Source of the DNA: an uncultured Candidatus Saccharibacteria bacterium
Lineage (GTDB): Bacteria; Patescibacteriota; Saccharimonadia; Saccharimonadales; CAYUUR01
NCBI GenBank assembly: GCA_964448075.1
Contig: CAYUUR010000005.1
Coordinates: forward strand, 1-49,340
DNA: 49,340 nucleotides
Direction: 5' to 3'
Below, in pieces: positions 474 through 19,700 of the stretch. The position numbers were made by a program, and so were the translations under genes. Positions within the stretch are counted from its first letter, which is position 1; each line of letters begins with the position of its first letter. The notes under the pieces are model-generated. The model saw only the letters and a list, made by a program, of their open reading frames with translations, ran no database searches and was not told the origin of the DNA.

Positions 474-1226
474 TTATATCACTGTATCGGGGGATAGCTC
501 GTTAAGATTTTCCAGCGTAGTAACACGTATAGTCAGATCAACATAGCTACTGTCTAGTTCTTTTGCGGCTATGTTTTGTGCGCTTCTCTTGGTTTTGGCA
601 GATCGGCAGATAAGTATGATGTGTGGGTGCGGCGTACCTGGTTTATGTTTTTGCCAGATACCAAGTTCTGCGAAGGCTATGTAGCGTTTTATGGTCTTTC
701 TGAGTGCCCAGAAACTGGCAGAATCTTCTAGGTAGTCCATGAAGTAATGTTGATTCATCTGGGTATCAAGAATCATGGCATCAGGTTTAGTTTTTGGAAC
801 GTAATTTTTATTCATCAGTTCGGTTTTGCTGAAGAATTTGAACCGCTTGGGATAAGTATTCTTGAAATGGATAAATACCTCAAAAACACTCAGCCTGTGA
901 GCTATCACGCTTGGCGTTGCACGTTTATCGTGGTAGATACTTCTGAGTGCTGATTCCTGTATGTACGACTGCTGGCGTAAGTATCTGACACCTTTAGGTA
1001 ATAAGTAATACGTGGCAGCCTGACCTTTAATCTTATAGCTACTGTCATAGTTCATACCAATGTATTCTTGATCTACTAGTATCTTTAGCCTGTCTGATAT
1101 AACACGTACATGGTTGGCGTTTTGGTTCTGGGCTAGTAACGAGGTAGTTATGAAGCGGAATTTATAAAGCGTGTTTAGGATAGCAAGTTGATGGTTGTTT
1201 AATGGTCGTCGGTATTTTGGTTGCAT
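474..1226 (-). CDS. Replication-relaxation family protein (plasmid/ICE-type winged-helix protein)
   Basis: 250 aa. The N-terminal LNNHQLAILNTLYKFRFITTSLL...RLKILVDQEYI pattern is typical of Replic_Relax proteins. A GGGAG SD sits upstream of the ATG at 1224-1226. Confidence 0.55.
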   Translation of the reverse strand: MQPKYRRPLNNHQLAILNTLYKFRFITTSLLAQNQNANHVRVISDRLKILVDQEYIGMNYDSSYKIKGQAATYYLLPKGVRYLRQQSYIQESALRSIYHDKRATPSVIAHRLSVFEVFIHFKNTYPKRFKFFSKTELMNKNYVPKTKPDAMILDTQMNQHYFMDYLEDSASFWALRKTIKRYIAFAELGIWQKHKPGTPHPHIILICRSAKTKRSAQNIAAKELDSSYVDLTIRVTTLENLNELSPDTVI

Positions 1227-1238
1227 AGTTAACTACTC

Positions 1239-1255
1239 CCTATACGTAGTATAGG
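1239..1255. promoter_or_regulatory. Perfect palindrome CCTATAC-GTA-GTATAGG (candidate operator) upstream of the replication-relaxation gene
   Basis: 7-bp arms with a 3-nt spacer, read directly. It lies in the divergent intergenic region between 474-1226(-) and 1524-3233(+). Confidence 0.3.
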
Positions 1256-1523
1256 TAATTATACAACAAAAGATTATAAATATAACAGATAAGAATATAG
1301 CATATAGATATCCTAACGATAAGATATCCACAGGTTTATCTGAAATAGCTCAATTTTATTCTTGCACTATCGCTATTATCCATAGTATACTATAGCTATA
1401 ATCAATAGTTCTATGAGGGTATCATGGTAAACAATGGCGAAGCAATCACAGCAGCAGACGAGGAGGAACGCCTTGAACTGCTGGCAGATATCTTGCTGGA
1501 ACTTGCCCTAGAGGAAGGTCAGC

Positions 1524-3233
1524 ATGAACCCGCAAGCTAACCAAAACGCCGTTGCGGCTATTAGGGTCTCAACCACCAAACAGGGCCGTGATGGCGACTC
1601 TCCTGAAGCCCAGAAAGAGCAAATTGAGCGGTTTGCACTGAATAAAGGTATCACCATTAAAAAGTTCTTTGTCTTTATGGAATCAGCCAGCAAAGAGCAA
1701 CAACCTATGCAGGAAGCCATAGATTACTGTAAGAACAAGAAAAACAAGGTTGACCTGTTTATTATCAAGTCAATTGACCGTTTTACCCGTGGCGGCTCAC
1801 TCTCCTACGATCTGCTCAAAACCCAGCTCGATAGTTGCGGTATTACATTGGTCGATACTTACGGCGTAATCAGCCAAGAGCAAGTCAACACCCTTGAACA
1901 TCTTGGGCACAGTTATAAGTGGAGTACCTACTCACCGAGCCGTAAGTCCGAGATGCTAGAAGCCGAACGCTCTAAAGATGAAGTCAGAGATATTTTAAGC
2001 CGTGTCATAGGTGCTGAAATCCGCTACACCCAAATGGGCTACTATATGCGCCGTCCGCCTTACGGTTTTATAAGCGAGAAAGTAGAAACCCAGCACGGCA
2101 AACGTACAATCTTAAAACCACACCCTGAAGAATCCAAATTTATTACTAAGCTATTCGAGCTAAGAGCCAGCCGACAGTTTACCGACAAAGAAATAGCTAC
2201 CAAACTTAACGACATGGGCTATCGAGGCCGCACGCAGTACCGTCGATCCAAAACAGACCGCAGTCGTATTGTTGGACAGACTGAGGGTGTGTTACTTGAT
2301 GAGAAGAAGCTTTGGAGGATCGTCAGAAACCCAATCTATACAGGTATTATAGTTGAGAAGTGGACAAAGTATCAGCCAGTCAAAGCTATGTTTGACGGTC
2401 TAGTGTCAGTTGAGCTATTTAACCGAGCTAACAGGGGCAAACGAACCATTATTGAAATGCCCGGCAACAAAATCGCCATCACTGACAATGTTGCCGAGAG
2501 AAACGCCACACCACAAGGTACGCGCAACAACGATTTCGCTTTTAAGCATTACGTCATGTGTCCGCAGTGCAACAAGCCGCTGTCAGGTAGCGCCTCACGT
2601 GGTAAAACCGGTAAATACTATTCGTATTATCACTGTGATAAACGAGGACATAAGTTCAGGGTTAGCAAGGAAGAGCTGGAAGCTAATATATACAGCTTCA
2701 TAGACGGTATGACATTCTCACAGGAGCGCATTGATGCAGTATTTGCTATCGTCCGCAAGAAATACGAGCAACATATAGCCACCTACGAGGCTCAGTCAGC
2801 GGCACTTGATGGACAAATCACCGCTCTTGAAACTAAAGCCAGAGAACTCACCAGAAGCTTCGCAACCATCGCCTCATCAGCTCAGAAATACGTCAATGAG
2901 GAGCTAGAGGATATAGATAGACAAATTAAGCGCTTAGCGCTGGAAAGGACAAACATGGAAAGTAAAAAACCTATGGATATAGACACTGTTTTAGAAAGAA
3001 TCAAAAAGTTTTCCGAAAACATTGGTCAGGCTATATCCCAACAGGGGAACAACATCAAAAAAGCCCAGCTTTTCGGGCTATTATTCAAAACTCTGCCAAC
3101 CTACAACGATTTACGTTTCCGAAACCGAAAAACACCCCTTTTTACAGGGGTGCATCCGATCTTTAGCCTACTCGCTGGCGATAATCTACATTTGGTGACC
3201 TCAAGGGGAATCGAACCCCTATTGCCAGGATGA
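1524..3233 (+). CDS. Large serine recombinase (integrase)
   Basis: Resolvase-type N-terminus with the AIRVSTTKQ catalytic-Ser motif, a recombinase domain, a zinc ribbon (CPQC...YYHCDKRGH) and a coiled-coil tail. A GAGGAAGG SD precedes the ATG. The last 41 nt are antisense to tRNA-Glu. Confidence 0.9.
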   Translation: MNPQANQNAVAAIRVSTTKQGRDGDSPEAQKEQIERFALNKGITIKKFFVFMESASKEQQPMQEAIDYCKNKKNKVDLFIIKSIDRFTRGGSLSYDLLKTQLDSCGITLVDTYGVISQEQVNTLEHLGHSYKWSTYSPSRKSEMLEAERSKDEVRDILSRVIGAEIRYTQMGYYMRRPPYGFISEKVETQHGKRTILKPHPEESKFITKLFELRASRQFTDKEIATKLNDMGYRGRTQYRRSKTDRSRIVGQTEGVLLDEKKLWRIVRNPIYTGIIVEKWTKYQPVKAMFDGLVSVELFNRANRGKRTIIEMPGNKIAITDNVAERNATPQGTRNNDFAFKHYVMCPQCNKPLSGSASRGKTGKYYSYYHCDKRGHKFRVSKEELEANIYSFIDGMTFSQERIDAVFAIVRKKYEQHIATYEAQSAALDGQITALETKARELTRSFATIASSAQKYVNEELEDIDRQIKRLALERTNMESKKPMDIDTVLERIKKFSENIGQAISQQGNNIKKAQLFGLLFKTLPTYNDLRFRNRKTPLFTGVHPIFSLLAGDNLHLVTSRGIEPLLPG

Positions 3234-3267
3234 AAACCTGGTGTCCTAACCGTTAGACGATGAGGCC
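3193..3267 (-). tRNA. tRNA-Glu (anticodon UUC), CCA encoded
   Basis: Manual cloverleaf: acceptor GGCCTCA/TGAGGTC, D arm GTCT-AACGGTTA-GGAC, anticodon arm CCAGG-TTTTCAT-CCTGG, T arm AGGGG-TTCGATT-CCCCT, discriminator A plus CCA. 75 nt. Confidence 0.9.
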
Positions 3268-8588: not shown

Positions 8589-9488
8589 ATGCAAATACAG
8601 AGAATTCCTGTGTTCCCAAATTTTTCAAAGCTTGATATTGCTCATCAAGAAGAGTTTGATCGACTGAGTAAAGATTTTGAACCATATGCAGAATTCAGCT
8701 TTCCTTGTCTTTTTTGCTGGGATACTGACGGAAGTACTCAATTATCGGTGTTGAACGGCAACCTGGTAATACGAATGCCTGACTATATTACTGGGGAGCC
8801 ATTTTACTCATTAATTGGTACGTCTATGATTGATGAATCTATGAATCAACTTCTTTCGATTACAGACTCTTTAAAACTAGTCCCAGAGGTAACAATCGAT
8901 CATATCAAGCGAGCTGAGAACTTTGTTGTTACGGCCGATCGTGATCAATTTGACTATATATATTCACTTGATCAGTTAGTCAACTTACCTGGGGCACACT
9001 TCAAGGGTCGCCGAAACAAAAAGGGCCGATTCGTCAAGGTTTACGAAGATCAGCTGCATATCAGTAAGATCAAATTTGGGTCGTCCGAAACCATACCTCA
9101 ACTTCTCAATGTATTTGATCGATGGGCTAAACAACGCGGTAGGTCAATCAGTGAAGCCAGTCACGAGCGCTTGGCGCTATCACGGTTACTGACTGAGTCA
9201 ACACGATTCAACTTAATTGGAATAGTCGTTGAGGTTGATGACGAAATTGTAGGATTTTCAATAAACGAGATTGTTCAAAAAAATTACGCCGTATGCCGAT
9301 TTCAAAAATCACTACTAGACATAGATCACTTGGACGCTTTTCTTTCAAACCTTGTTGCTGTTGAGTTAAAACACTACGGCTGCGATCTGATAAGCTGGGA
9401 GCAAGATCTTGGAATAGAAGGGTTGAGGCAATTTAAAGAGTCGTATAAGCCTGTTATGTTTCTTAAAAAATACACGGTTACAAAGTAG
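8589..9488 (+). CDS. DUF2156 / LPG_synthase_C-like protein (tandem GNAT fold, putative aminoacyl-tRNA-dependent transferase)
   Basis: 299 aa. The N-terminal pattern FSKLDIAHQEEFDRL...FSFPCLFCWD resembles stand-alone DUF2156 proteins. It is a paralog of 13018-13980. Confidence 0.5.
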   Translation: MQIQRIPVFPNFSKLDIAHQEEFDRLSKDFEPYAEFSFPCLFCWDTDGSTQLSVLNGNLVIRMPDYITGEPFYSLIGTSMIDESMNQLLSITDSLKLVPEVTIDHIKRAENFVVTADRDQFDYIYSLDQLVNLPGAHFKGRRNKKGRFVKVYEDQLHISKIKFGSSETIPQLLNVFDRWAKQRGRSISEASHERLALSRLLTESTRFNLIGIVVEVDDEIVGFSINEIVQKNYAVCRFQKSLLDIDHLDAFLSNLVAVELKHYGCDLISWEQDLGIEGLRQFKESYKPVMFLKKYTVTK

Positions 9489-11896: not shown

Positions 11897-13021
11897 TTAC
11901 TCGGACAGGAAGATTTGGCTGGGTATTTGAAAGTCATTGAACGGAGCGCCATAAACAACTGTGTACGCACCAGCTGAGCCAAAATATACCTTGTCTCCAA
12001 TCATAAGTGTCTCTGGCAAAAGTGCGTTATGCGTTATAGTGTCGCAAGAATCGCATGTCGGCCCAGTAAGAACATAGTTCGTTAGTTTGGCGTTTGGTCC
12101 ATCTTTACTGGATGTTACCGGGTATTGAATACTATCTGACTCAAACATTTCGACAAATGCTTGAAACCGCCCAACATCTAGAAATAGCCAATCCTGATCT
12201 CCACGCCTGACTTTACCAATTATTGACGATACAATCACACTACTTTCTGCCACCAAATAGCGTCCAGGCTCGCACCACAGATCAACTTCGTATGGCAGCT
12301 TAGCAACATTTGCACGGATTCTTGCGGCAATATCCTCAATTGAAGGAATCGGCTGACAATGATCTACAGGGAAACCTCCCCCAATGTTTACCACTTTCAT
12401 TTTGATGCCTGCCTTTAGCAACTCCTTCATAAGTTTTACTGTCCGCGAAAAAGCAGAGTCCCAAACTTCAAGACTTTCCGCTTGAGAGCCAACATGGAAA
12501 GCAATTCCTACAGGCTCCAGTCCTTGCTTTCGTGCATAGGTTAAAATTGAGACAGCACTATCAATTGTGGCGCCAAACTTATCGCTTAGTTTTATCAAGC
12601 TACCTTTATTCGATACGTTTATTCGCAAATATACTTTGCTGTGTGGTGCGTATTCGTGTAGCTTATCGACTTCCTCCGTTGAATCAACTGCATAAAATAT
12701 GACTCCCTTATCATAAGCCTGTTTTATATGACTAGGGATTTTTACTGGGTTACTGAAAATTACATCTCTTGGTTCTACATCCAGTTCGGTTAGGCGATCT
12801 AACTCACCGATCGACGCAATCTCGAAACCACAACCTGTAGAATAAAGTCTCTTGAGGATAGGCTTAGCTGGACATGCCTTAACAGCGTAGTAAATCTTTG
12901 TATTGGGCAGGTTAGCCTTTAAGCCATAGAATTGCCGTTGAATATAATCGAGGTCAGTAACCATCAACGGAGTACTTGCAACACTACCCTTCAAGTATCG
13001 TGCATTAAGTCTGCTCGTCAT
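11897..13021 (-). CDS. PLP-dependent ornithine/lysine decarboxylase-like enzyme (alanine-racemase fold, ODC type)
   Basis: YYAVKACPA (PLP lysine), GGGFPV, CEPGRYLVAES and GPTCDSCD motifs. 374 aa. Confidence 0.8.
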   Translation of the reverse strand: MTSRLNARYLKGSVASTPLMVTDLDYIQRQFYGLKANLPNTKIYYAVKACPAKPILKRLYSTGCGFEIASIGELDRLTELDVEPRDVIFSNPVKIPSHIKQAYDKGVIFYAVDSTEEVDKLHEYAPHSKVYLRINVSNKGSLIKLSDKFGATIDSAVSILTYARKQGLEPVGIAFHVGSQAESLEVWDSAFSRTVKLMKELLKAGIKMKVVNIGGGFPVDHCQPIPSIEDIAARIRANVAKLPYEVDLWCEPGRYLVAESSVIVSSIIGKVRRGDQDWLFLDVGRFQAFVEMFESDSIQYPVTSSKDGPNAKLTNYVLTGPTCDSCDTITHNALLPETLMIGDKVYFGSAGAYTVVYGAPFNDFQIPSQIFLSE

Positions 13022-13980
13022 GTCTTGATTGTATCATCATGCCAAACATCTACTGGCCTGACACAATACATGCGCAAAAAGTTGGTAGGCGCTAACGACA
13101 ACTTGATGTTTCTGAGTAATGGAAATCCCGAATCAGCCTCGATGTTTACAAATTTTACCCTCTCTTCTTTGAACCATCTTGCATACATATATATTGAAAT
13201 CTCCATTAAATATGGAAGTTCGTAACTAAAACGAGCATGTGACATTATCTTGTAATCGTCAGCAGGGCTATCTTGTAGAATCAAGAAACTATGTAGCTCT
13301 CCATCCAAATACATGCCCAGTCCGTTAAAGCCAAGATCATTAGCCTTACGAATCGCAATCAACAGACAATCCTCTTCGTGTTTTGCGAAGTTATTCACGC
13401 CCCCCTTTAACTTCCATCTGGAAACAAGCTCAATCAGCTCGTCAGCTTGATAAACCGAGCTCAGATCAAGCGGCGCAACTTTTATTCGCTCATTATTGTA
13501 TTCATCTAGGAATCGCTTTAATTTCCACTGTTTGTGTCTTGGCAACGCATCAATATTGGCTAGTTGACGACAGTCCACAATACACTCATCGTGTTCACGC
13601 TCTGCAGTAAAGCGAAAGAGTTCTGGGTATCGGACTTGGCTAACCACATGTTCCGGGACATGAGTCAGACATTGCTTTTGTCCCTTTGACCGCTGAAAAT
13701 CAAATACGGCGCAAAAAGTCTCATCGACATTATCGTTACCTAAAACCGTCAAGCCTGAATATTCATCATAACCTGGATACCACAAACATATCACCATGTT
13801 ATTCCCGTGCATGGCAATTCTGCACGGCTCAAGCGCACTCCACCAAGTAAGTAAAGTACCGAAGCTTAGAGAAGCAGAAGGCTGAAATCGGCTACAAAAT
13901 TGCTCGTAAAGCTCGCGGTGGGCAAGTGTGAGTTTGGTGAACTCAGGGAAGGTTTTGAAGTGAGAGGCACCTTTTTGCAT
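13018..13980 (-). CDS. DUF2156 / LPG_synthase_C-like protein, paralog of 8589-9488
   Basis: FTKLTLAHRELYEQF...LSFGTLLTWW pattern. Its stop overlaps the decarboxylase start (ATGA at 13018-21). The listed TTG start is at 13992. The first ATG is at 13978-80. Confidence 0.5.
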   Translation of the reverse strand: MQKGASHFKTFPEFTKLTLAHRELYEQFCSRFQPSASLSFGTLLTWWSALEPCRIAMHGNNMVICLWYPGYDEYSGLTVLGNDNVDETFCAVFDFQRSKGQKQCLTHVPEHVVSQVRYPELFRFTAEREHDECIVDCRQLANIDALPRHKQWKLKRFLDEYNNERIKVAPLDLSSVYQADELIELVSRWKLKGGVNNFAKHEEDCLLIAIRKANDLGFNGLGMYLDGELHSFLILQDSPADDYKIMSHARFSYELPYLMEISIYMYARWFKEERVKFVNIEADSGFPLLRNIKLSLAPTNFLRMYCVRPVDVWHDDTIKT

Positions 13981-14079
13981 GATGGGCTCCAATTTGCACT
14001 TATCGTACTATCTTTTGACAGGAATGAAAATTGCTTGTGCTAGACAGTATGTAATAACTGGTGCACAATAAAACTAAAG

Positions 14080-14445
14080 ATGAAACAAAAAGTCGCTGTT
14101 ATCGAAGATGATCTGCCAATCTGTGAGATGTATGAGTTCAAGCTACAAAACTCTGGGTTTGAGGTCAAGACGGCTCACAATGGACAGGATGGCTACAAGC
14201 TAGTAGAAGTCTTCAAGCCAGATCTTATTCTACTGGACCTCAAAATGCCCATCATGACGGGGGACGCCATGCTGCAAAAACTCCGCCAAACTGAGTGGGG
14301 TGCAAACCTGCGCGTTATTATCCTGACAAATATTAGCCGCGACGAAGCACCGCATAGCCTGCGCTTTCTGAACGTTGACCGCTATATCGTCAAAGCACAC
14401 CACACGCCGCAACAGGTAATAGATATCGTCAAAGAACTCATCTAG
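14080..14445 (+). CDS. Stand-alone receiver-domain response regulator (REC only)
   Basis: 121 aa with EDD acidic pocket, LLDLKMP phospho-Asp motif, ILTN and a conserved K (VKA). No output domain. Confidence 0.9.
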   Translation: MKQKVAVIEDDLPICEMYEFKLQNSGFEVKTAHNGQDGYKLVEVFKPDLILLDLKMPIMTGDAMLQKLRQTEWGANLRVIILTNISRDEAPHSLRFLNVDRYIVKAHHTPQQVIDIVKELI

Positions 14446-14542
14446 CAGTACGGCATTGTTTGAACTTTGGAGTACGACTCTCTCATCGTTTTCAGATTCT
14501 CCGAATTTAATCACAAAGCTTAGCAATTGTTCAGAGTTTCAA

Positions 14543-15187: not shown

Positions 15188-15685
15188 CTACTTGTTTAAT
15201 ATTTTGGAGAAAAATCCTCGTTTTTGTTTACGAATGTCGAGTAGTAGCCCTGATTTCAACTGTCTTCGTACAATACCTGGCGGCTGTTGCACATTCCCAG
15301 TTTTAGTTATTTCGAAGTAGTATTTCTCGTCCTGACCAAGGATGAGGCACCCGAAACTAGCGTCAGCGGTTAGCTCTTGTAGAAATGGAAGCCTCGAAAG
15401 TTGCATCCCAATACTAATAAGTTGCTCTTCCGTACAATTACTTTTTTGAGGCATATCAACTTTGATTTTGAGGCTTATTTTACCGTAGTTTGTAGAATCA
15501 TCATAAAATGCCGTTAGTGTGTCGCTTTGATAGTGTAGTGTGACCTCGACCTGTTTCTCGATGTTGCCCTCTCTTACACAATACGTAATTGGCACTTTTG
15601 ACATTGCAATAAGTAATAGGAGACTTTTGTCTAGTTTCAAAATCTGATTAACTTGGTGTTCTAGATTAGTCGACATTGTCTTCAT
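15188..15685 (-). CDS. Hypothetical protein (orphan immunity-like cassette gene)
   Basis: The listed start at 15706 is TTG and abuts the relic. In-frame ATGs occur at 15683-85 and 15674-76. Confidence 0.4.
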   Translation of the reverse strand: MKTMSTNLEHQVNQILKLDKSLLLLIAMSKVPITYCVREGNIEKQVEVTLHYQSDTLTAFYDDSTNYGKISLKIKVDMPQKSNCTEEQLISIGMQLSRLPFLQELTADASFGCLILGQDEKYYFEITKTGNVQQPPGIVRRQLKSGLLLDIRKQKRGFFSKILNK

Positions 15686-15707
15686 TATCTCATAGGAGCC
15701 CGCCAAA

Positions 15708-15761
15708 ATAGCCTACGCTTCCTAAATGTTGACCGCTATATCGTCAAAGAACTCATCTAGC
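15708..15761 (+). pseudogene. Relic 3' end of a REC-only response-regulator gene
   Basis: It aligns to 14354-14446. There are 4 mismatches in 42 nt, all synonymous third positions. A 39-nt in-frame deletion lies between two ATCGTCAAAG copies. The last 12 nt, including the TAG, are identical. Confidence 0.85.
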
Positions 15762-15851: not shown

Positions 15852-16196
15852 CTACAGTTTGATGACTTTTGATTTTACTTGAGTGTCGGTCGCGGAACCG
15901 AAGCGCAAAGTTACTTGTTTGCTTTTGAACTTTGAGGAACGAACAGAGTGTTCTATTTTTGCCCAGATATGTTCTGCGGAACGGCCGTATATGTACAGAA
16001 TGGCTTCACCCTCGCCAATTTCATGACCATCAAACTCTGCTGTGTCGGCAAGGATGTCCGTAATTGAACTCTCAAGTTTGCGTAGCATATCATGATCATC
16101 CTTATCGCCAAGCTTTCTATCAGACCGAAAAACTACAGATACAATTACAGCCTGTTCATCAGGTAAGTCTTCTTTTGGATGTAAGTCAACCAACAT
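15852..16196 (-). CDS. Hypothetical small acidic protein (immunity-like)
   Basis: 114 aa with an ATG start, second gene downstream of the RHS toxin gene. Confidence 0.45.
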   Translation of the reverse strand: MLVDLHPKEDLPDEQAVIVSVVFRSDRKLGDKDDHDMLRKLESSITDILADTAEFDGHEIGEGEAILYIYGRSAEHIWAKIEHSVRSSKFKSKQVTLRFGSATDTQVKSKVIKL

Positions 16197-16259: not shown

Positions 16260-16703
16260 TCACTCTATGGACGTGCGATGTGACGAATATGGCTCAAAAT
16301 GCCGTACTTTGACAAGTGAACTTTTCCGCTTTAATAGCGCATTAATATTAAACTTCTCTTCACCTACTTCTACTTTGTATGAGGTATGATGTTTGTCATA
16401 TTCGCGAATTGTTATTTTTCCAGCGACGACATCATGAATTAGTTTTCTGAGACTTGGGGCGAGTCGCTCCGGGTGTTTTGGATTTTGGAATACTTCGATG
16501 GTGTACGTATCGTCAAAGAGAACCAAGGCTGTCCAAGGCTCAACATCAATTACAATCTTACATGCCTCTCTGTTAAAAAGAGGGCTTATTTCAAGCCTTC
16601 CATCCATAAACCTAACTCGCGCCTTGTGTGTAAGGTCCTTTTTTAGCTCCATACATAACTCATTGAACGCTTGTGTTGTAAGGCTGTTGTCATTTTTCTT
16701 CAT
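16260..16703 (-). CDS. Candidate cognate immunity protein of the RHS toxin
   Basis: The ATG at 16701-03 lies 4 nt after the RHS stop (GGAAGGTAGTAGGATG). 147 aa from this ATG. No recognisable family. Confidence 0.5.
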   Translation of the reverse strand: MKKNDNSLTTQAFNELCMELKKDLTHKARVRFMDGRLEISPLFNREACKIVIDVEPWTALVLFDDTYTIEVFQNPKHPERLAPSLRKLIHDVVAGKITIREYDKHHTSYKVEVGEEKFNINALLKRKSSLVKVRHFEPYSSHRTSIE

Positions 16704-16707
16704 CCTA

Positions 16708-19700
16708 CTACCTTCCAAAGATTATCTTAAATATTGGACTTAAGTTCACGTGGTAATGGAACGATGTGCCAGGCCAACCAAAAGCTAAACGAAACACGAA
16801 ACCGCCTGCCTTGCTACTACCCTGCCATCCCCAGCCTATACGTACTGGGCCACGATTGACAATACCTTTTCTCAGTTCCACTGATTTCTTTAACCCACTT
16901 GATGCTGTTTTACTTACGGTCCCGCCCTTGCCGAACAGTTTTGAGTTAATACCCATTGATCTCGCGAAAGGTTTTGGCTTGGTAATTGCGTTAAGGCCAT
17001 CTACACCGCGTCCGATTGCCTTTGTTGATCTCGCGGCCGGCTTGAGCACCTTGCCTCCCACTCGTAGTGCGCCGGCTCCTGGAATGCCCGGTATAAATTC
17101 TGAGCCTAAGAAAGCTAGGTTTTTAAGCGATGGATCTTTGTTGAACTGGTATGCGCTGTAAGCCAATGAGCCAATGTCAACAATAGCTAGTAACGCCGCC
17201 ACGACAATACCCCGACCATCCGCATCACGGTCATTGATTGGATCTGGAGGATAAACATACGAATTCTGAACACCACCGTCGACAGGGTCGTTTGATATGA
17301 AGCGACCGAGAGCTGGTATATAGACCCGTGAACCCATTTGGATAGCCGTGACTGACATGAGTGTTTCTGTTTGACGTTGATGCGTGCCGAGCCAGCCGTA
17401 TTCGCCGGATGTACTTACGTGCGAATCAACAACAGTGTTGTTTTTGTCTAAAAGCTTAGCGAGTTCTTGTTGTATCTGAGTCCCGGTAGCAGCCTCACCT
17501 ATTGCACTACCTGCGGTGGCCAAATATGAACCAACGGCAATACTACTACCATCAACCCCATTTTGGGATTGCCCAACAGTACCATTGGTGAGTGTGCCTT
17601 CCATGAGTTTGGTCAAAAAGCTGGCCTGTGGCTTGATTGACTCTCCAAATGCACTATACAACTCGATGCCACCCTTTAGCTGACCAAATGCGTCAAGTAC
17701 TGCCATCGTATCCCCGTGTAGGTTGCTCAGGCTTAACTGTACTTTTTGCTGTGCAGGATGCCACGGACGAAGGTGCAGTCTCATACCACCTGCTAGCGAA
17801 ATATACTTCTCAATTACTACTTTATTTTCGTTCATGAGTACTGTTGGCGAATCCCCTGGCGCTGCGTAACCATAGTGTTGAGTAATAGTAGGCTTAGTGG
17901 CACCCGCCTTGCTTACATATGTAATCATCCTGTTATTGATATCTCTTACATAGGAAATGCTCTTATCCGCTTGTTCTATCTTGGTATTACGGCCAAGTTG
18001 GTCAAACTTAAATTTCATTGCAGTAGAGAGCGTGTTGGCAGCAGTCATGTTTCCATGGTCATCGTACGTAGGCGTTCCGAAGTCAGAGCTATTAGTTGCA
18101 ATTAAGCGGTCGGCATTGTCATAGCAGTACCATGTCGTAGTGCCATTCTGGTCCATTGTCATTCGATTACCGTTTTTACCTGCCGCTGCATTGTTGCCGG
18201 TTTTGCTTGCGCATGCGGTATTCGCACTACCAAAAGTGTATTGATATGTATTGTCAGCGATATTTGCGTTTGTTAGACGGTGTGCAAGATCATATGCGTA
18301 CGTCTGCCTATCACCAGATATCCGTACGCCATTTACATATTGGTTCATGACATCGCCACCGACACTTCGCTCTACCATCTCGGTGATTTCATTGGCAAGG
18401 CCAGCTGTCTGAGCTGGTAGTTTGTAGCGAATACCGTTCTGACGCTGAAGTTCGTCATAGAAGTTTGTTTCTAAAGACGTGCCTGGCATTTTGGTGACAT
18501 CTACTTTGATCAGTCGACCAAAATCATCGTAGCTGTATTTGGCAAGTTCTTCCCCGTCCAGCGAGTGTGTAGTCAGTTCATCGAAATCGTTATAACCAAA
18601 AGTTTCTGTACCAAGCTGGCTGGTACGACGCTCCAATCTACCTTTTGTATCATAGAAATTGCTTGTCTGCGCGCCGTGAGCATCACGATAGCTGACTGTA
18701 CGTCCAAGCAGATCATAAACAGTTACAATGGTTCCGTTATTGTCGGTGTTTGCCACTGCAAGGGGGTTGTTGTTATAAAAGTAGCTATTGAGTATAGTAC
18801 TGCCCGGTCTGCCATTATGCGCCTGTATGACAACACTCGTAACGCGCCCACGGGCATCATAAGTAGTGCAGTTCCATGGGTCATTGTTTACACGTGCAGC
18901 AACCTCCCTGCCTGCATCATCATAAACCGCTTCAAATACTTTACTTTTTTGCGGCCCGGCACCGTCTGGATCAGGCTCGATACGCCCTTTTGAAAGGCCT
19001 GCTTGCTTGAAGGCTTCGACCTCAGGCGTGCATGGATTGTCTCGTGTATCTAAGGGTTCATAGTGTGCATAGGCGGTTTTGTTGCCCCCCGGTAATACTT
19101 TGGCGGTCTTTCTAAGTAAACTTGATGTATTCTGTGCTTCCTGCTCGGCTGCCGTTACGAGATTCTCGCCATCTGGATCAACTGTCACTGAACTCACGAG
19201 GCCAAGCGACGCGTCCTGATATTGGGTGGTAGTTTTAATATTCCCTAGCTGTGAGTCGTAGCCGATCCCACTGCTTATAAGACCGTAGTTTGACGCGATC
19301 ATATCGCCCCAGTCAGTCGTACTACTCGCGATGCCAGGGCCACTCACCGCAACTTGCCAGCCGCCCGTTTGGCCAACAGAAGCGTAATCAAGGCGGAGTC
19401 GGTATGCTTTATTCGCAACAGCCGTAAACGTCCCTTGTTTCTGGAGTGCCGTCTCACTAATCTGCTCCCACCCATCAATTACCGCTGCGTCGTCAATCCA
19501 CAATTTAAGCGAGTCATCATGACTAGCGCTAAACGTGTATGTACCAGATTGAGGGAATACTACTTTACCCGTTACGCTTACGCCCACGCCATCCATGCCA
19601 GCCGAAGGTGTAATCGGTTGTTCGGCGCTGTATTGACCCTTCATCGCAGTCGGTATATTAGATTCGTTGATATTGCCCGTGCCATAGCGCTTTGGCACTC

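Follow-up and report, generated by a model that had tools for sequence, protein, structure and literature searches.

What does an RHS protein carry at its C-terminus when its tip matches no known toxin, and is the small gene directly behind it the cognate immunity gene? These questions are raised by a 49,340-nucleotide (nt) stretch of DNA from an uncultured Candidatus Saccharibacteria bacterium (contig CAYUUR010000005.1 of assembly GCA_964448075.1, positions 1 to 49,340, hereafter the window), which encodes on its minus strand a 2366-amino-acid (aa) RHS/YD-repeat protein ending in a 168-aa tip. A preliminary description of this DNA had read the tip as one toxin domain of no recognizable family, had taken its composition as a sign of a membrane-active or otherwise novel effector, and had proposed the next gene as its immunity gene. 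Our analysis indicates that the tip consists of two modules and that the second, which we term module b, is a rare toxin-domain family missing from curated collections and set within a classic RHS toxin-immunity locus; its toxicity is predicted. The explanation that we favor, with moderate confidence, is a Sec-type RHS/YD toxin with a modular 168-aa cargo, in which module b would be toxic to a cytoplasmic target and the 147-aa product of the downstream gene, I147, would be the cognate immunity protein.

By those features that can be read from sequence, the locus is an RHS polymorphic toxin system. Pfam models identify three PA14 stretches (E 2e-48), GLEYA and RHS_repeat (E 3e-9) in the 2366-aa protein, and the NCBIfam model YD_repeat_2x matches in three stretches (E 1.3e-13); the YD and RHS repeats form the shell of an RHS/YD system. 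The match to TIGR03696, the model of the RHS repeat-associated core, scores 36.7 bits (cutoff 32.5), covers profile positions 28-75 of 76 and ends in ...DADG, and the tip begins directly behind it at residue 2199. This boundary is the expected autoproteolytic site ahead of the cargo, by analogy with RhsA and Tse5 (PMC8765631, PMC10684867). The N-terminus, judged from the translation alone, combines a long basic n-region with the hydrophobic stretch LTAAFFVAILLANVAILPA behind it and is signal- or anchor-like. A Pfam scan of the RHS protein and about 30 neighboring window genes returned no match to PAAR, VgrG, LXG or WXG, and these neighbors include no markers of type VI or type VII secretion systems (T6SS, T7SS). 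The open reading frame (ORF), the tip, its hydrophobic helix (IVVAALLAIVDIGSLAYSAY) and its C-terminal end (VRIGWGWQGSSKAGGFVFRLAFGWPGTSFHYHVNL) all lie where the preliminary description had put them. The stretch recurs without one difference on an independent contig from a wastewater run and is present, partly or whole, in runs of about 11 wastewater or activated-sludge studies.

A word-indexed homology search with the whole tip returned no match, the tip itself included. Searched exhaustively with phmmer, a library of 1.84 billion representative proteins yielded 17 proteins, with E values down to 1e-12, and the matches split into two sets, one covering tip residues ~7-104 and the other residues ~63-163. 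Module a, the N-terminal part, is a portable pre-toxin linker composed of the hydrophobic helix (tip residues 3-22) followed by the motif YxFxKDPSxxNxxFLxxEFIPGxPGAG. In an AlphaFold2 model of the tip, built from a 13-sequence alignment, a helix is predicted over tip residues 2-26 with low confidence, and the predicted local distance difference test score (pLDDT) is below 50 over residues 1-78. Four of the proteins found, P0005 (E 2.5e-11), P0012, P0014 and P0016, match tip residues ~7-104 only and differ in their C-termini. Module a likewise follows the RHS core end (D.DG or DPNG) in all four, and is succeeded by Ntox21 in P0012 (26.8 bits, cutoff 25), by a GYxEIAPGVYRSADG...SHVHFE domain in P0014 and by a C-terminus with a DGHHR motif in P0016. 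The layout first described for the tip, a hydrophobic helix, a basic region and a Trp/Gly-rich end, holds for the helix and the end as quoted, but the helix belongs to a separate module that travels with other cargo.

A natural breakpoint separates the two modules. Contigs of runs X4 and X8, both from one study of sludge, match window positions 16997-17153 with 0-2 differences and then run on for 114-209 nt in sequence unlike the window; this continuation was found neither in the window nor in any fetched locus. Translated by hand from 30 readable letters (plus strand, GCTTTTGCAACATTCTTGAATGCCGAAACA), the variant reads in frame ...GRGVDG-VSAFKNVAK... against ...GRGVDG-LNAITKPKP... in the window. 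Because the two reading frames diverge after GRGVDG, the switch lies behind tip residue 73, within the basic stretch that links the two modules. Runs X5, X6 and X7 carry the window form across this point. The X4 and X8 contigs are direct evidence of tip swapping with module a retained, that is, of a recent swap between the modules; module b, for its part, is found on unrelated RHS proteins of 616-1489 aa, so that the tip is polymorphic from both sides. The 168-aa cargo of the preliminary description is thus real but is not one domain; it comprises two modules, a basic linker and, between them, a recombination breakpoint.

Module b was aligned in 27 sequences, with nine further members coming from a profile search of a 5.8-billion-cluster collection and six further loci from pattern scans of 185,579 species genomes and JGI metagenome contigs. 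Pairwise identity among the 27 ranges from 37 to 77%. Six residues are invariant in all of them, N120, R125, G127, W128, R142 and H155 in tip numbering (N2318, R2323, G2325, W2326, R2340 and H2353 in the protein, by adding 2198), six more are kept in at least 85% (F94, G117, L119, W130, F141 and G146), and position 157 is mostly Asp or Asn. The resulting signature is LFG-x(n)-G-x-L-N-x(4,5)-R-[IVLM]-G-W-x-W-x-G-x(4,5)-G-x(2,3)-F-R-x(3)-G-x(n)-H-x-[DN]. The AlphaFold2 model is confident here (pLDDT ~90 over tip residues 80-165), with strands at 99-103, 109-113, 124-131, 138-145 and 154-157 and a helix at 159-166. The module is hydrophilic, with a grand average of hydropathy (GRAVY) of -0.14, an isoelectric point (pI) of 11.9 and a net charge of +15. 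It occupies the extreme C-terminus of every member, and an RHS core visibly precedes it in at least 14 of the 27 copies. Its RHS-linked sources are scattered and include a 1489-aa RHS protein from an Omnitrophota metagenome-assembled genome (MAG; L009), the RHS end of a Planctomycetales MAG (L008), RHS proteins of 926 and 616 aa on high-GC contigs (L012 and L013), and high-GC soil contigs.

The expectation that the tip belongs to no known toxin family was borne out both by sequence and by predicted fold. The window tip has no match among Pfam, NCBIfam, PADLOC or PHROG models or PDB sequences, and the module b region has none in Pfam or NCBIfam (scans of 18 and 13 members), including the GW- and SH3-type Pfam models. 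A profile search of PDB gave a chance match only (E 2.1), a Foldseek search found no fold match (best E 1.3 in PDB and 0.49 in BFVD), and tblastn against 72,556 plasmids returned no match. Three readings of the C-terminal motif were considered and rejected. An HNH or beta-beta-alpha-metal fold formed by the last strands and the helix fails because many members stop right after Hx[DN] and have no helix; a metallo-beta-lactamase-like HxHxD site fails because many members have another residue in place of the first His, and because a domain of this size is much too small for one; and an intein or HINT reading of H-x-N fails because nothing lies behind the motif to be released. One hit of the genome scan, L010, was also discarded as a 16-residue chance match inside an unrelated ORF.

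The gene behind the tip occupies the position expected of a cognate immunity gene. As first described, it begins 4 nt past the RHS stop: tandem in-frame TAG TAG stops close the RHS gene (16710-16705), the ATG of I147 stands at 16703, and a Shine-Dalgarno-like GGAAGG at 16716-16711, inside the end of the RHS gene, lies 7 nt before that ATG. Terminator and promoter scans around the junction found sites no commoner than in shuffled sequence. I147 has no signal or membrane segment (hydropathy maximum 0.89) and is soluble by prediction. Searches with Pfam, NCBIfam, PADLOC and PHROG models and against PDB sequences left it without a match, and its AlphaFold2 model has an alpha/beta topology at low confidence (pLDDT 64), with weak and nonsignificant frataxin-like matches (E ~0.1); the view that it has no recognizable family stands. 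A small same-strand ORF (81-159 aa) follows module b in all 10 loci with readable context, starting from ~55 nt before to 58 nt after the toxin stop, and several of these ORFs overlap the toxin gene in ATGA style. With this rule and an orphan homolog under purifying selection, described below, I147 is the best candidate for the immunity protein, as the preliminary description had proposed from position.

These downstream proteins form at least five groups with no detectable mutual similarity. Family F (L006/L007, L008 and L009) shares a FLDGTxxxWxWDDFxSxPI motif, family D (L003/L004 and L005) is 72% identical, and family X (L011, L012 and L014) is held together by pairwise shuffle p values of 0-0.02; each of these three recurs with related toxins. 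Family Y is a single locus (L013), and family W consists of I147 of the window and one homolog in L001. None of the families matches Pfam or is found in PDB, and a profile of family F likewise matches no PDB sequence. By eye, I147 and family X have element order in common and a similar C-terminal motif (VRHFEPY versus VRLYEPY), but we do not claim kinship because the statistics do not support it (hidden Markov model shuffles 96/3000 and worse; Smith-Waterman shuffles p 0.1-0.4).

The soluble character of the downstream proteins bears on where module b would act. The preliminary description had suggested a membrane-active tip from composition, and one such reading is a toxin like Tse5-CT of Pseudomonas aeruginosa, in which the helix inserts, the cationic Trp/Gly-rich end binds anionic lipid, and depolarization or leakage follows. 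The helix is strongly hydrophobic (Kyte-Doolittle 19-residue mean, KD19, of 2.09), the 168-aa cargo carries a net +20 and is rich in Trp, Gly, Arg and Lys at its end, Gly/Ala-rich hydrophobic stretches precede module b in P0004, P0011, P0015 and P0024, and there is a precedent in an Rhs protein whose delivered C-terminal fragment of 16 kDa forms pores (PMC10684867). The helix linker, however, also precedes Ntox21 and other unrelated domains, the linker is membrane-grade in only 3 of 14 readable proteins (the window, P0011 and P0015), and polar or basic linkers join the RHS core to module b in L008, L009, L011/P0006 and P0019. Whereas a Tse5-CT-like cargo is largely helical, hydrophobic or amphipathic, and integrates into membranes, the window cargo has a single hydrophobic helix, in the portable linker, and its conserved domain, built of beta strands, is hydrophilic and includes polar residues that never vary. 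All 10 candidate immunity proteins, I147 and nine others, lack a membrane or N-terminal signal-like segment in a test of hydropathy only (maximum KD19 at most 1.11), although a membrane toxin arriving from outside would be expected to need envelope-located protection. We consider membrane attack unlikely, and the suggestion made from composition is not supported. Because none of the 10 proteins has a membrane segment, module b probably acts inside the cell, where a cytoplasmic target is likelier than attack on the membrane; its high pI and charge were counted toward the same site. The same reasoning has been applied to other new toxins (PMC13483458).

The single homolog of I147, P0002 (85% identity), lies on L001, which shares more than 20 kb of synteny with the window and has neither the RHS gene nor O114, the gene that follows I147 in the window. 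The gene order is RR126 - RHS - I147 - O114 - B172 - C171 - RR121 in the window and RR126 - B - I - C - RR121 in L001. Between I147 and P0002 the ratio of nonsynonymous to synonymous substitution (dN/dS) is 0.17, which indicates purifying selection, and the synonymous divergence (dS) of 0.51 is the highest in the neighborhood; by these two values, I147 is a functional gene with a partly separate history. Sludge run X8 holds both the RHS shell and the L001-type joint (16671>15109), so that toxin-bearing strains and strains that have the immunity gene without the toxin share one sample. That toxin-less strains carry orphan immunity genes is a familiar pattern. Such coexistence is what an immunity gene predicts, without proving immunity.

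Module b also occurs apart from large RHS genes. In L006 (2876-3405) and L007 (629-1158), module b forms a stand-alone ORF of 68 aa, with a 105-aa family F ORF starting 5 nt behind it, and the 5.4-kb contig has no RHS gene; from its layout, this pair would be either an orphan toxin-immunity cassette or a toxin-antitoxin-like pair. In L003, an RHS fragment, an orphan module b and a family D partner lie beside a second RHS gene. The protein of that second gene (L003, 3501-5663) and the otherwise unrelated P0014 share, in each case behind a hydrophobic segment, another uncurated RHS tip domain, GYxEIAPGVYRSADGxRQFRM...SHVHFE, which has no Pfam match.

These arrangements are relevant to the possibility that module b is not a toxin at all and instead serves in surface binding, packaging or anchoring, for example as a cationic Gly-Trp binder of wall polymers, with unrelated genes downstream. 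The very basic composition and conserved GW-containing motif would fit such a role, as would the missing match to any catalytic family and the heterogeneity of the downstream proteins. Module b nevertheless sits past the RHS core boundary, in the place of a cargo toxin, and is swapped against other tips in nature; the stand-alone pair of L006/L007 and the orphan fragment of L003 have the form of typical toxin-immunity cassettes; and the GW- and SH3-type models find nothing in it. We regard a nontoxic role as very improbable.

Under the explanation that we favor, the RHS/YD protein would be exported by a Sec-type route, through neither a T6SS nor a T7SS. As with RhsA, Rhs1 and Tse5 (PMC8765631, PMC8636562, PMC10684867), the cargo would be cut after DADG and kept unfolded inside the YD cocoon. 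Module a, as an exchangeable pre-toxin linker, may help the cargo to engage or cross the target membrane, and module b, ~65 residues, very basic and with three to five beta strands, would be the toxic part and act in the cytoplasm. By the modeled strands, W128 and F141 would face each other across the hairpin 124-131/138-145 on its core side, with R125, G127 and R142 lying on the opposite one, and if strand 154-157 pairs with 142-145, H155 and residue 157 would join the R125/R142 face. We infer that the invariant Asn, the two Arg and the His, along with the usual Asp or Asn, lie on one face of the sheet. Such an exposed Arg-Arg-His-Asp/Asn patch beside two glycines would suit a phosphate-bearing substrate, as in small microbial RNases, and the target would be cytoplasmic and probably phosphate-bearing (RNA, DNA or nucleotide). 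I147, with its ribosome-binding site inside the RHS gene, would neutralize module b by direct binding, and strains that lost the RHS gene would retain their copy of I147 as orphan immunity. A more ambitious version, which we offer as a tentative and rather doubtful idea, is that module b founds a minimal toxin fold, a ~60-residue three-stranded sheet with an Arg-Arg-His-Asp face and a novel activity or target, and that module a is a self-inserting helix carrying RHS cargo through the membrane of a target cell without an injection machine, in little-studied lineages such as Omnitrophota, Planctomycetes and the sludge bacterium studied here.

Several observations weigh against the favored explanation. 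Module b is very small for an enzyme, and among its invariant residues only two Arg and one His are of a catalytic type; both the Asp and the leading His of HxH vary. The proposed clustering of polar residues on one face comes from modeled strand boundaries, and a cationic, Trp-rich domain also resembles a binder of membrane surfaces. Transcription is represented by one 163-nt contig from two 'RNA' runs, too little to show co-transcription. I147 is basic (pI 9.1), which is unusual for the inhibitor of a +15 domain, and it is not significantly similar to any other downstream protein (hhalign probability 0.5%; shuffle p 0.03-0.6) among at least five unrelated families. Because of this lack of similarity, the link between I147 and immunity rests on position and one homolog. 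The acidic O114 (pI 5.7) has been lost along with the RHS gene in L001.

The last three of these points also lend themselves to a different assignment, in which the tip is a toxin and the cognate immunity protein is O114, or O114 together with I147, the latter being one of the unrelated small genes of the islet. O114 is an alternative or additional candidate in this respect: its acidity would make it a natural partner for a +15 domain, and it shares its absence from L001 with the RHS gene, while I147 is kept there at a different position. Yet the constant feature of the 10 loci is an ORF at or next to the toxin stop codon, and it is I147 that has the 4-nt gap and the ribosome-binding site within the RHS gene. 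Families D and X, too, include basic proteins, no relative of O114 is present in any other module b locus, and the survival of I147 without the toxin agrees with what is already known of orphan immunity genes. We hold immunity through O114, with or without I147, to be decidedly unlikely and retain I147 as the candidate immunity protein. O114 itself gives a weak, sub-threshold match to DUF695 (E 0.0086, 16.8 bits, cutoff 23.1).

Among known systems, the delivery part resembles WapA-type proteins more closely than T6SS Rhs effectors, as far as its sequence tells. The WapA/WapI system of Bacillus subtilis and WapA of Streptococcus suis (PMC5566331, PMC12704120), which are Sec-exported YD/RHS toxins of monoderm bacteria, resemble the window locus in having a large YD-repeat protein with a signal-like N-terminus and, among the neighbors scanned here, no T6SS or T7SS genes, and they too consist of an RHS core, a variable C-terminal toxin and a small immunity gene directly downstream. 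They differ in that the WapA tips are tRNases of known families, none of which the window tip matches, and in that the window protein has three PA14 stretches and GLEYA lectin-type domains in place of the WapA wall-binding region. The T6SS Rhs effectors RhsA (P. protegens), Rhs1 and Tse5 have a YD cocoon, a core that cleaves itself as an aspartyl protease and an unfolded cargo of ~15-16 kDa (PMC8765631, PMC8636562, PMC10684867); at the window locus, cleavage is predicted, and the PAAR, prePAAR or VgrG context of these effectors is missing. Tse5 shows that an Rhs cargo can be hydrophobic, as the window helix is (PMC10684867), but Tse5-CT is a helical, integral-membrane pore former, whereas module b is a hydrophilic beta domain with a soluble candidate immunity protein.

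Module a has a counterpart in position and presumed role in PT-TG (PF14449), a poorly structured linker between the delivery part and interchangeable toxins that may act in interaction with the envelope (PMC13483458). In contrast to PT-TG, it begins with a membrane-grade helix and follows an RHS core rather than LXG or WXG domains, and the PT-TG model matches neither the window protein or 18 relatives at E<=1 nor the four module a-bearing proteins at E<=0.1. Module b is comparable to the Ntox and Tox-* domains of Pfam, to the nine new domains PT1-PT9 (bioRxiv 10.1101/2021.10.19.465003) and to the 24 W10XG-linked families Tox1-24 (PMC13483458), which likewise are short modular C-terminal domains with an adjacent small immunity gene whose product has no membrane segment. 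PT1-9 are reported to be common, at ~2.2% of sequenced bacteria (bioRxiv 10.1101/2021.10.19.465003). Identity of module b with any of PT1-9 or Tox1-24, from which it was set apart by descriptions only, is unlikely because module b is very rare and RHS-linked, whereas those families are common or W10XG-linked.

RHS toxin-immunity loci are well understood as a class, and the architecture here is ordinary. What is new is the cargo, a confidently modeled, very small and highly basic beta domain with a sharp signature and no relative, by sequence or fold, among curated collections or solved structures, which turns up sparsely in phyla far apart and has candidate immunity partners from at least five unrelated families. 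Should it prove toxic, module b would add a new activity or target to the interbacterial arsenal, and its ~65-residue size makes it easy to approach by structural and mutant work. Also new is that nature has dissected a hydrophobic pre-toxin linker here, joining one linker to different toxins with a breakpoint caught in the wild, which bears on how Sec-exported RHS toxins bring their cargo into target cells. Finally, RHS-bearing, tip-swapped and RHS-less orphan-immunity strains occur together in the same sludge samples, where toxin-immunity dynamics could be tested. New polymorphic-toxin domains have been reported in numbers (bioRxiv 10.1101/2021.10.19.465003; PMC13483458), and we regard the find as solid rather than startling.

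Table 1. Coordinates of the RHS locus and adjoining small genes in the window.
Feature	Position	Strand	Basis or remark
RHS/YD polymorphic-toxin gene	16708..23808	-	2366 aa; ORF list and translation
RHS repeat-associated core	17215..17364	-	aa 2149-2198; TIGR03696
168-aa tip after the core	16711-17214	-	includes the helix and the C-terminal end
Module a (tip aa 1-68), portable pre-toxin linker	17011..17214	-	exhaustive search matches
Hydrophobic helix (tip aa 3-22)	17149..17208	-	Kyte-Doolittle 19-residue mean
Basic Gly/Lys/Pro-rich linker (tip aa 69-87)	16954..17010	-	holds the breakpoint after tip residue 73 (window 16997)
Module b (tip aa 88-168), candidate toxin domain	16711..16953	-	27-sequence alignment
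Conserved core of module b (tip aa 93-157, ~65 residues)	16744-16938	-	motif LFG..GxLN..RIGWGWxG..G..VFR..G..HxHx[DN]
Coupling signals GGAAGG and TAG TAG	16705..16716	-	read from sequence
I147, candidate cognate immunity protein	16260..16703	-	147 aa; translation
O114, second gene after the RHS gene	15852..16196	-	114 aa
Remnant copy of the 3' end of response-regulator gene RR121	15708..15761	+	54 nt; 89-100% identical to 14354-14446, similar to 24224-24292
B172	15188-15706	-	no family match
C171	14543-15058	-	no family match

The locus lies in an islet bounded by two paralogous single-domain response-regulator genes (14080-14445 and 23941-24321). The 54-nt remnant sits just upstream of B172 and marks the inner edge of the RHS-I147-O114 block, where synteny with L001 breaks at 15747; this arrangement suggests that recombination between the response-regulator paralogs shapes the islet. 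I147, O114, B172 and C171 (14543-16703, minus strand) are four consecutive small genes with no family match, their relatives in L001 (9421-10991) being ordered B-I-C, and together they may be an immunity-like gene array, but no relative of B172 or C171 occurs in the other module b loci.

Elsewhere in the window, which contains no rRNA and two tRNAs, a large serine recombinase gene (1524-3233, plus strand) and a gene for a Replic_Relax protein (474-1226, minus strand) adjoin tRNA-Glu (3193-3267, minus strand), and an integrated mobile element probably has its end in this region (474-3267) at the left window edge. Two LPG_synthase_C-type paralogs flank an Orn/DAP/Arg decarboxylase gene and two genes with no assigned function (8589-9488, plus strand; 11897-13021 and 13018-13992, minus strand). 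This region, which may be a cluster for lipid or cell-surface aminoacylation, is conserved in L001.

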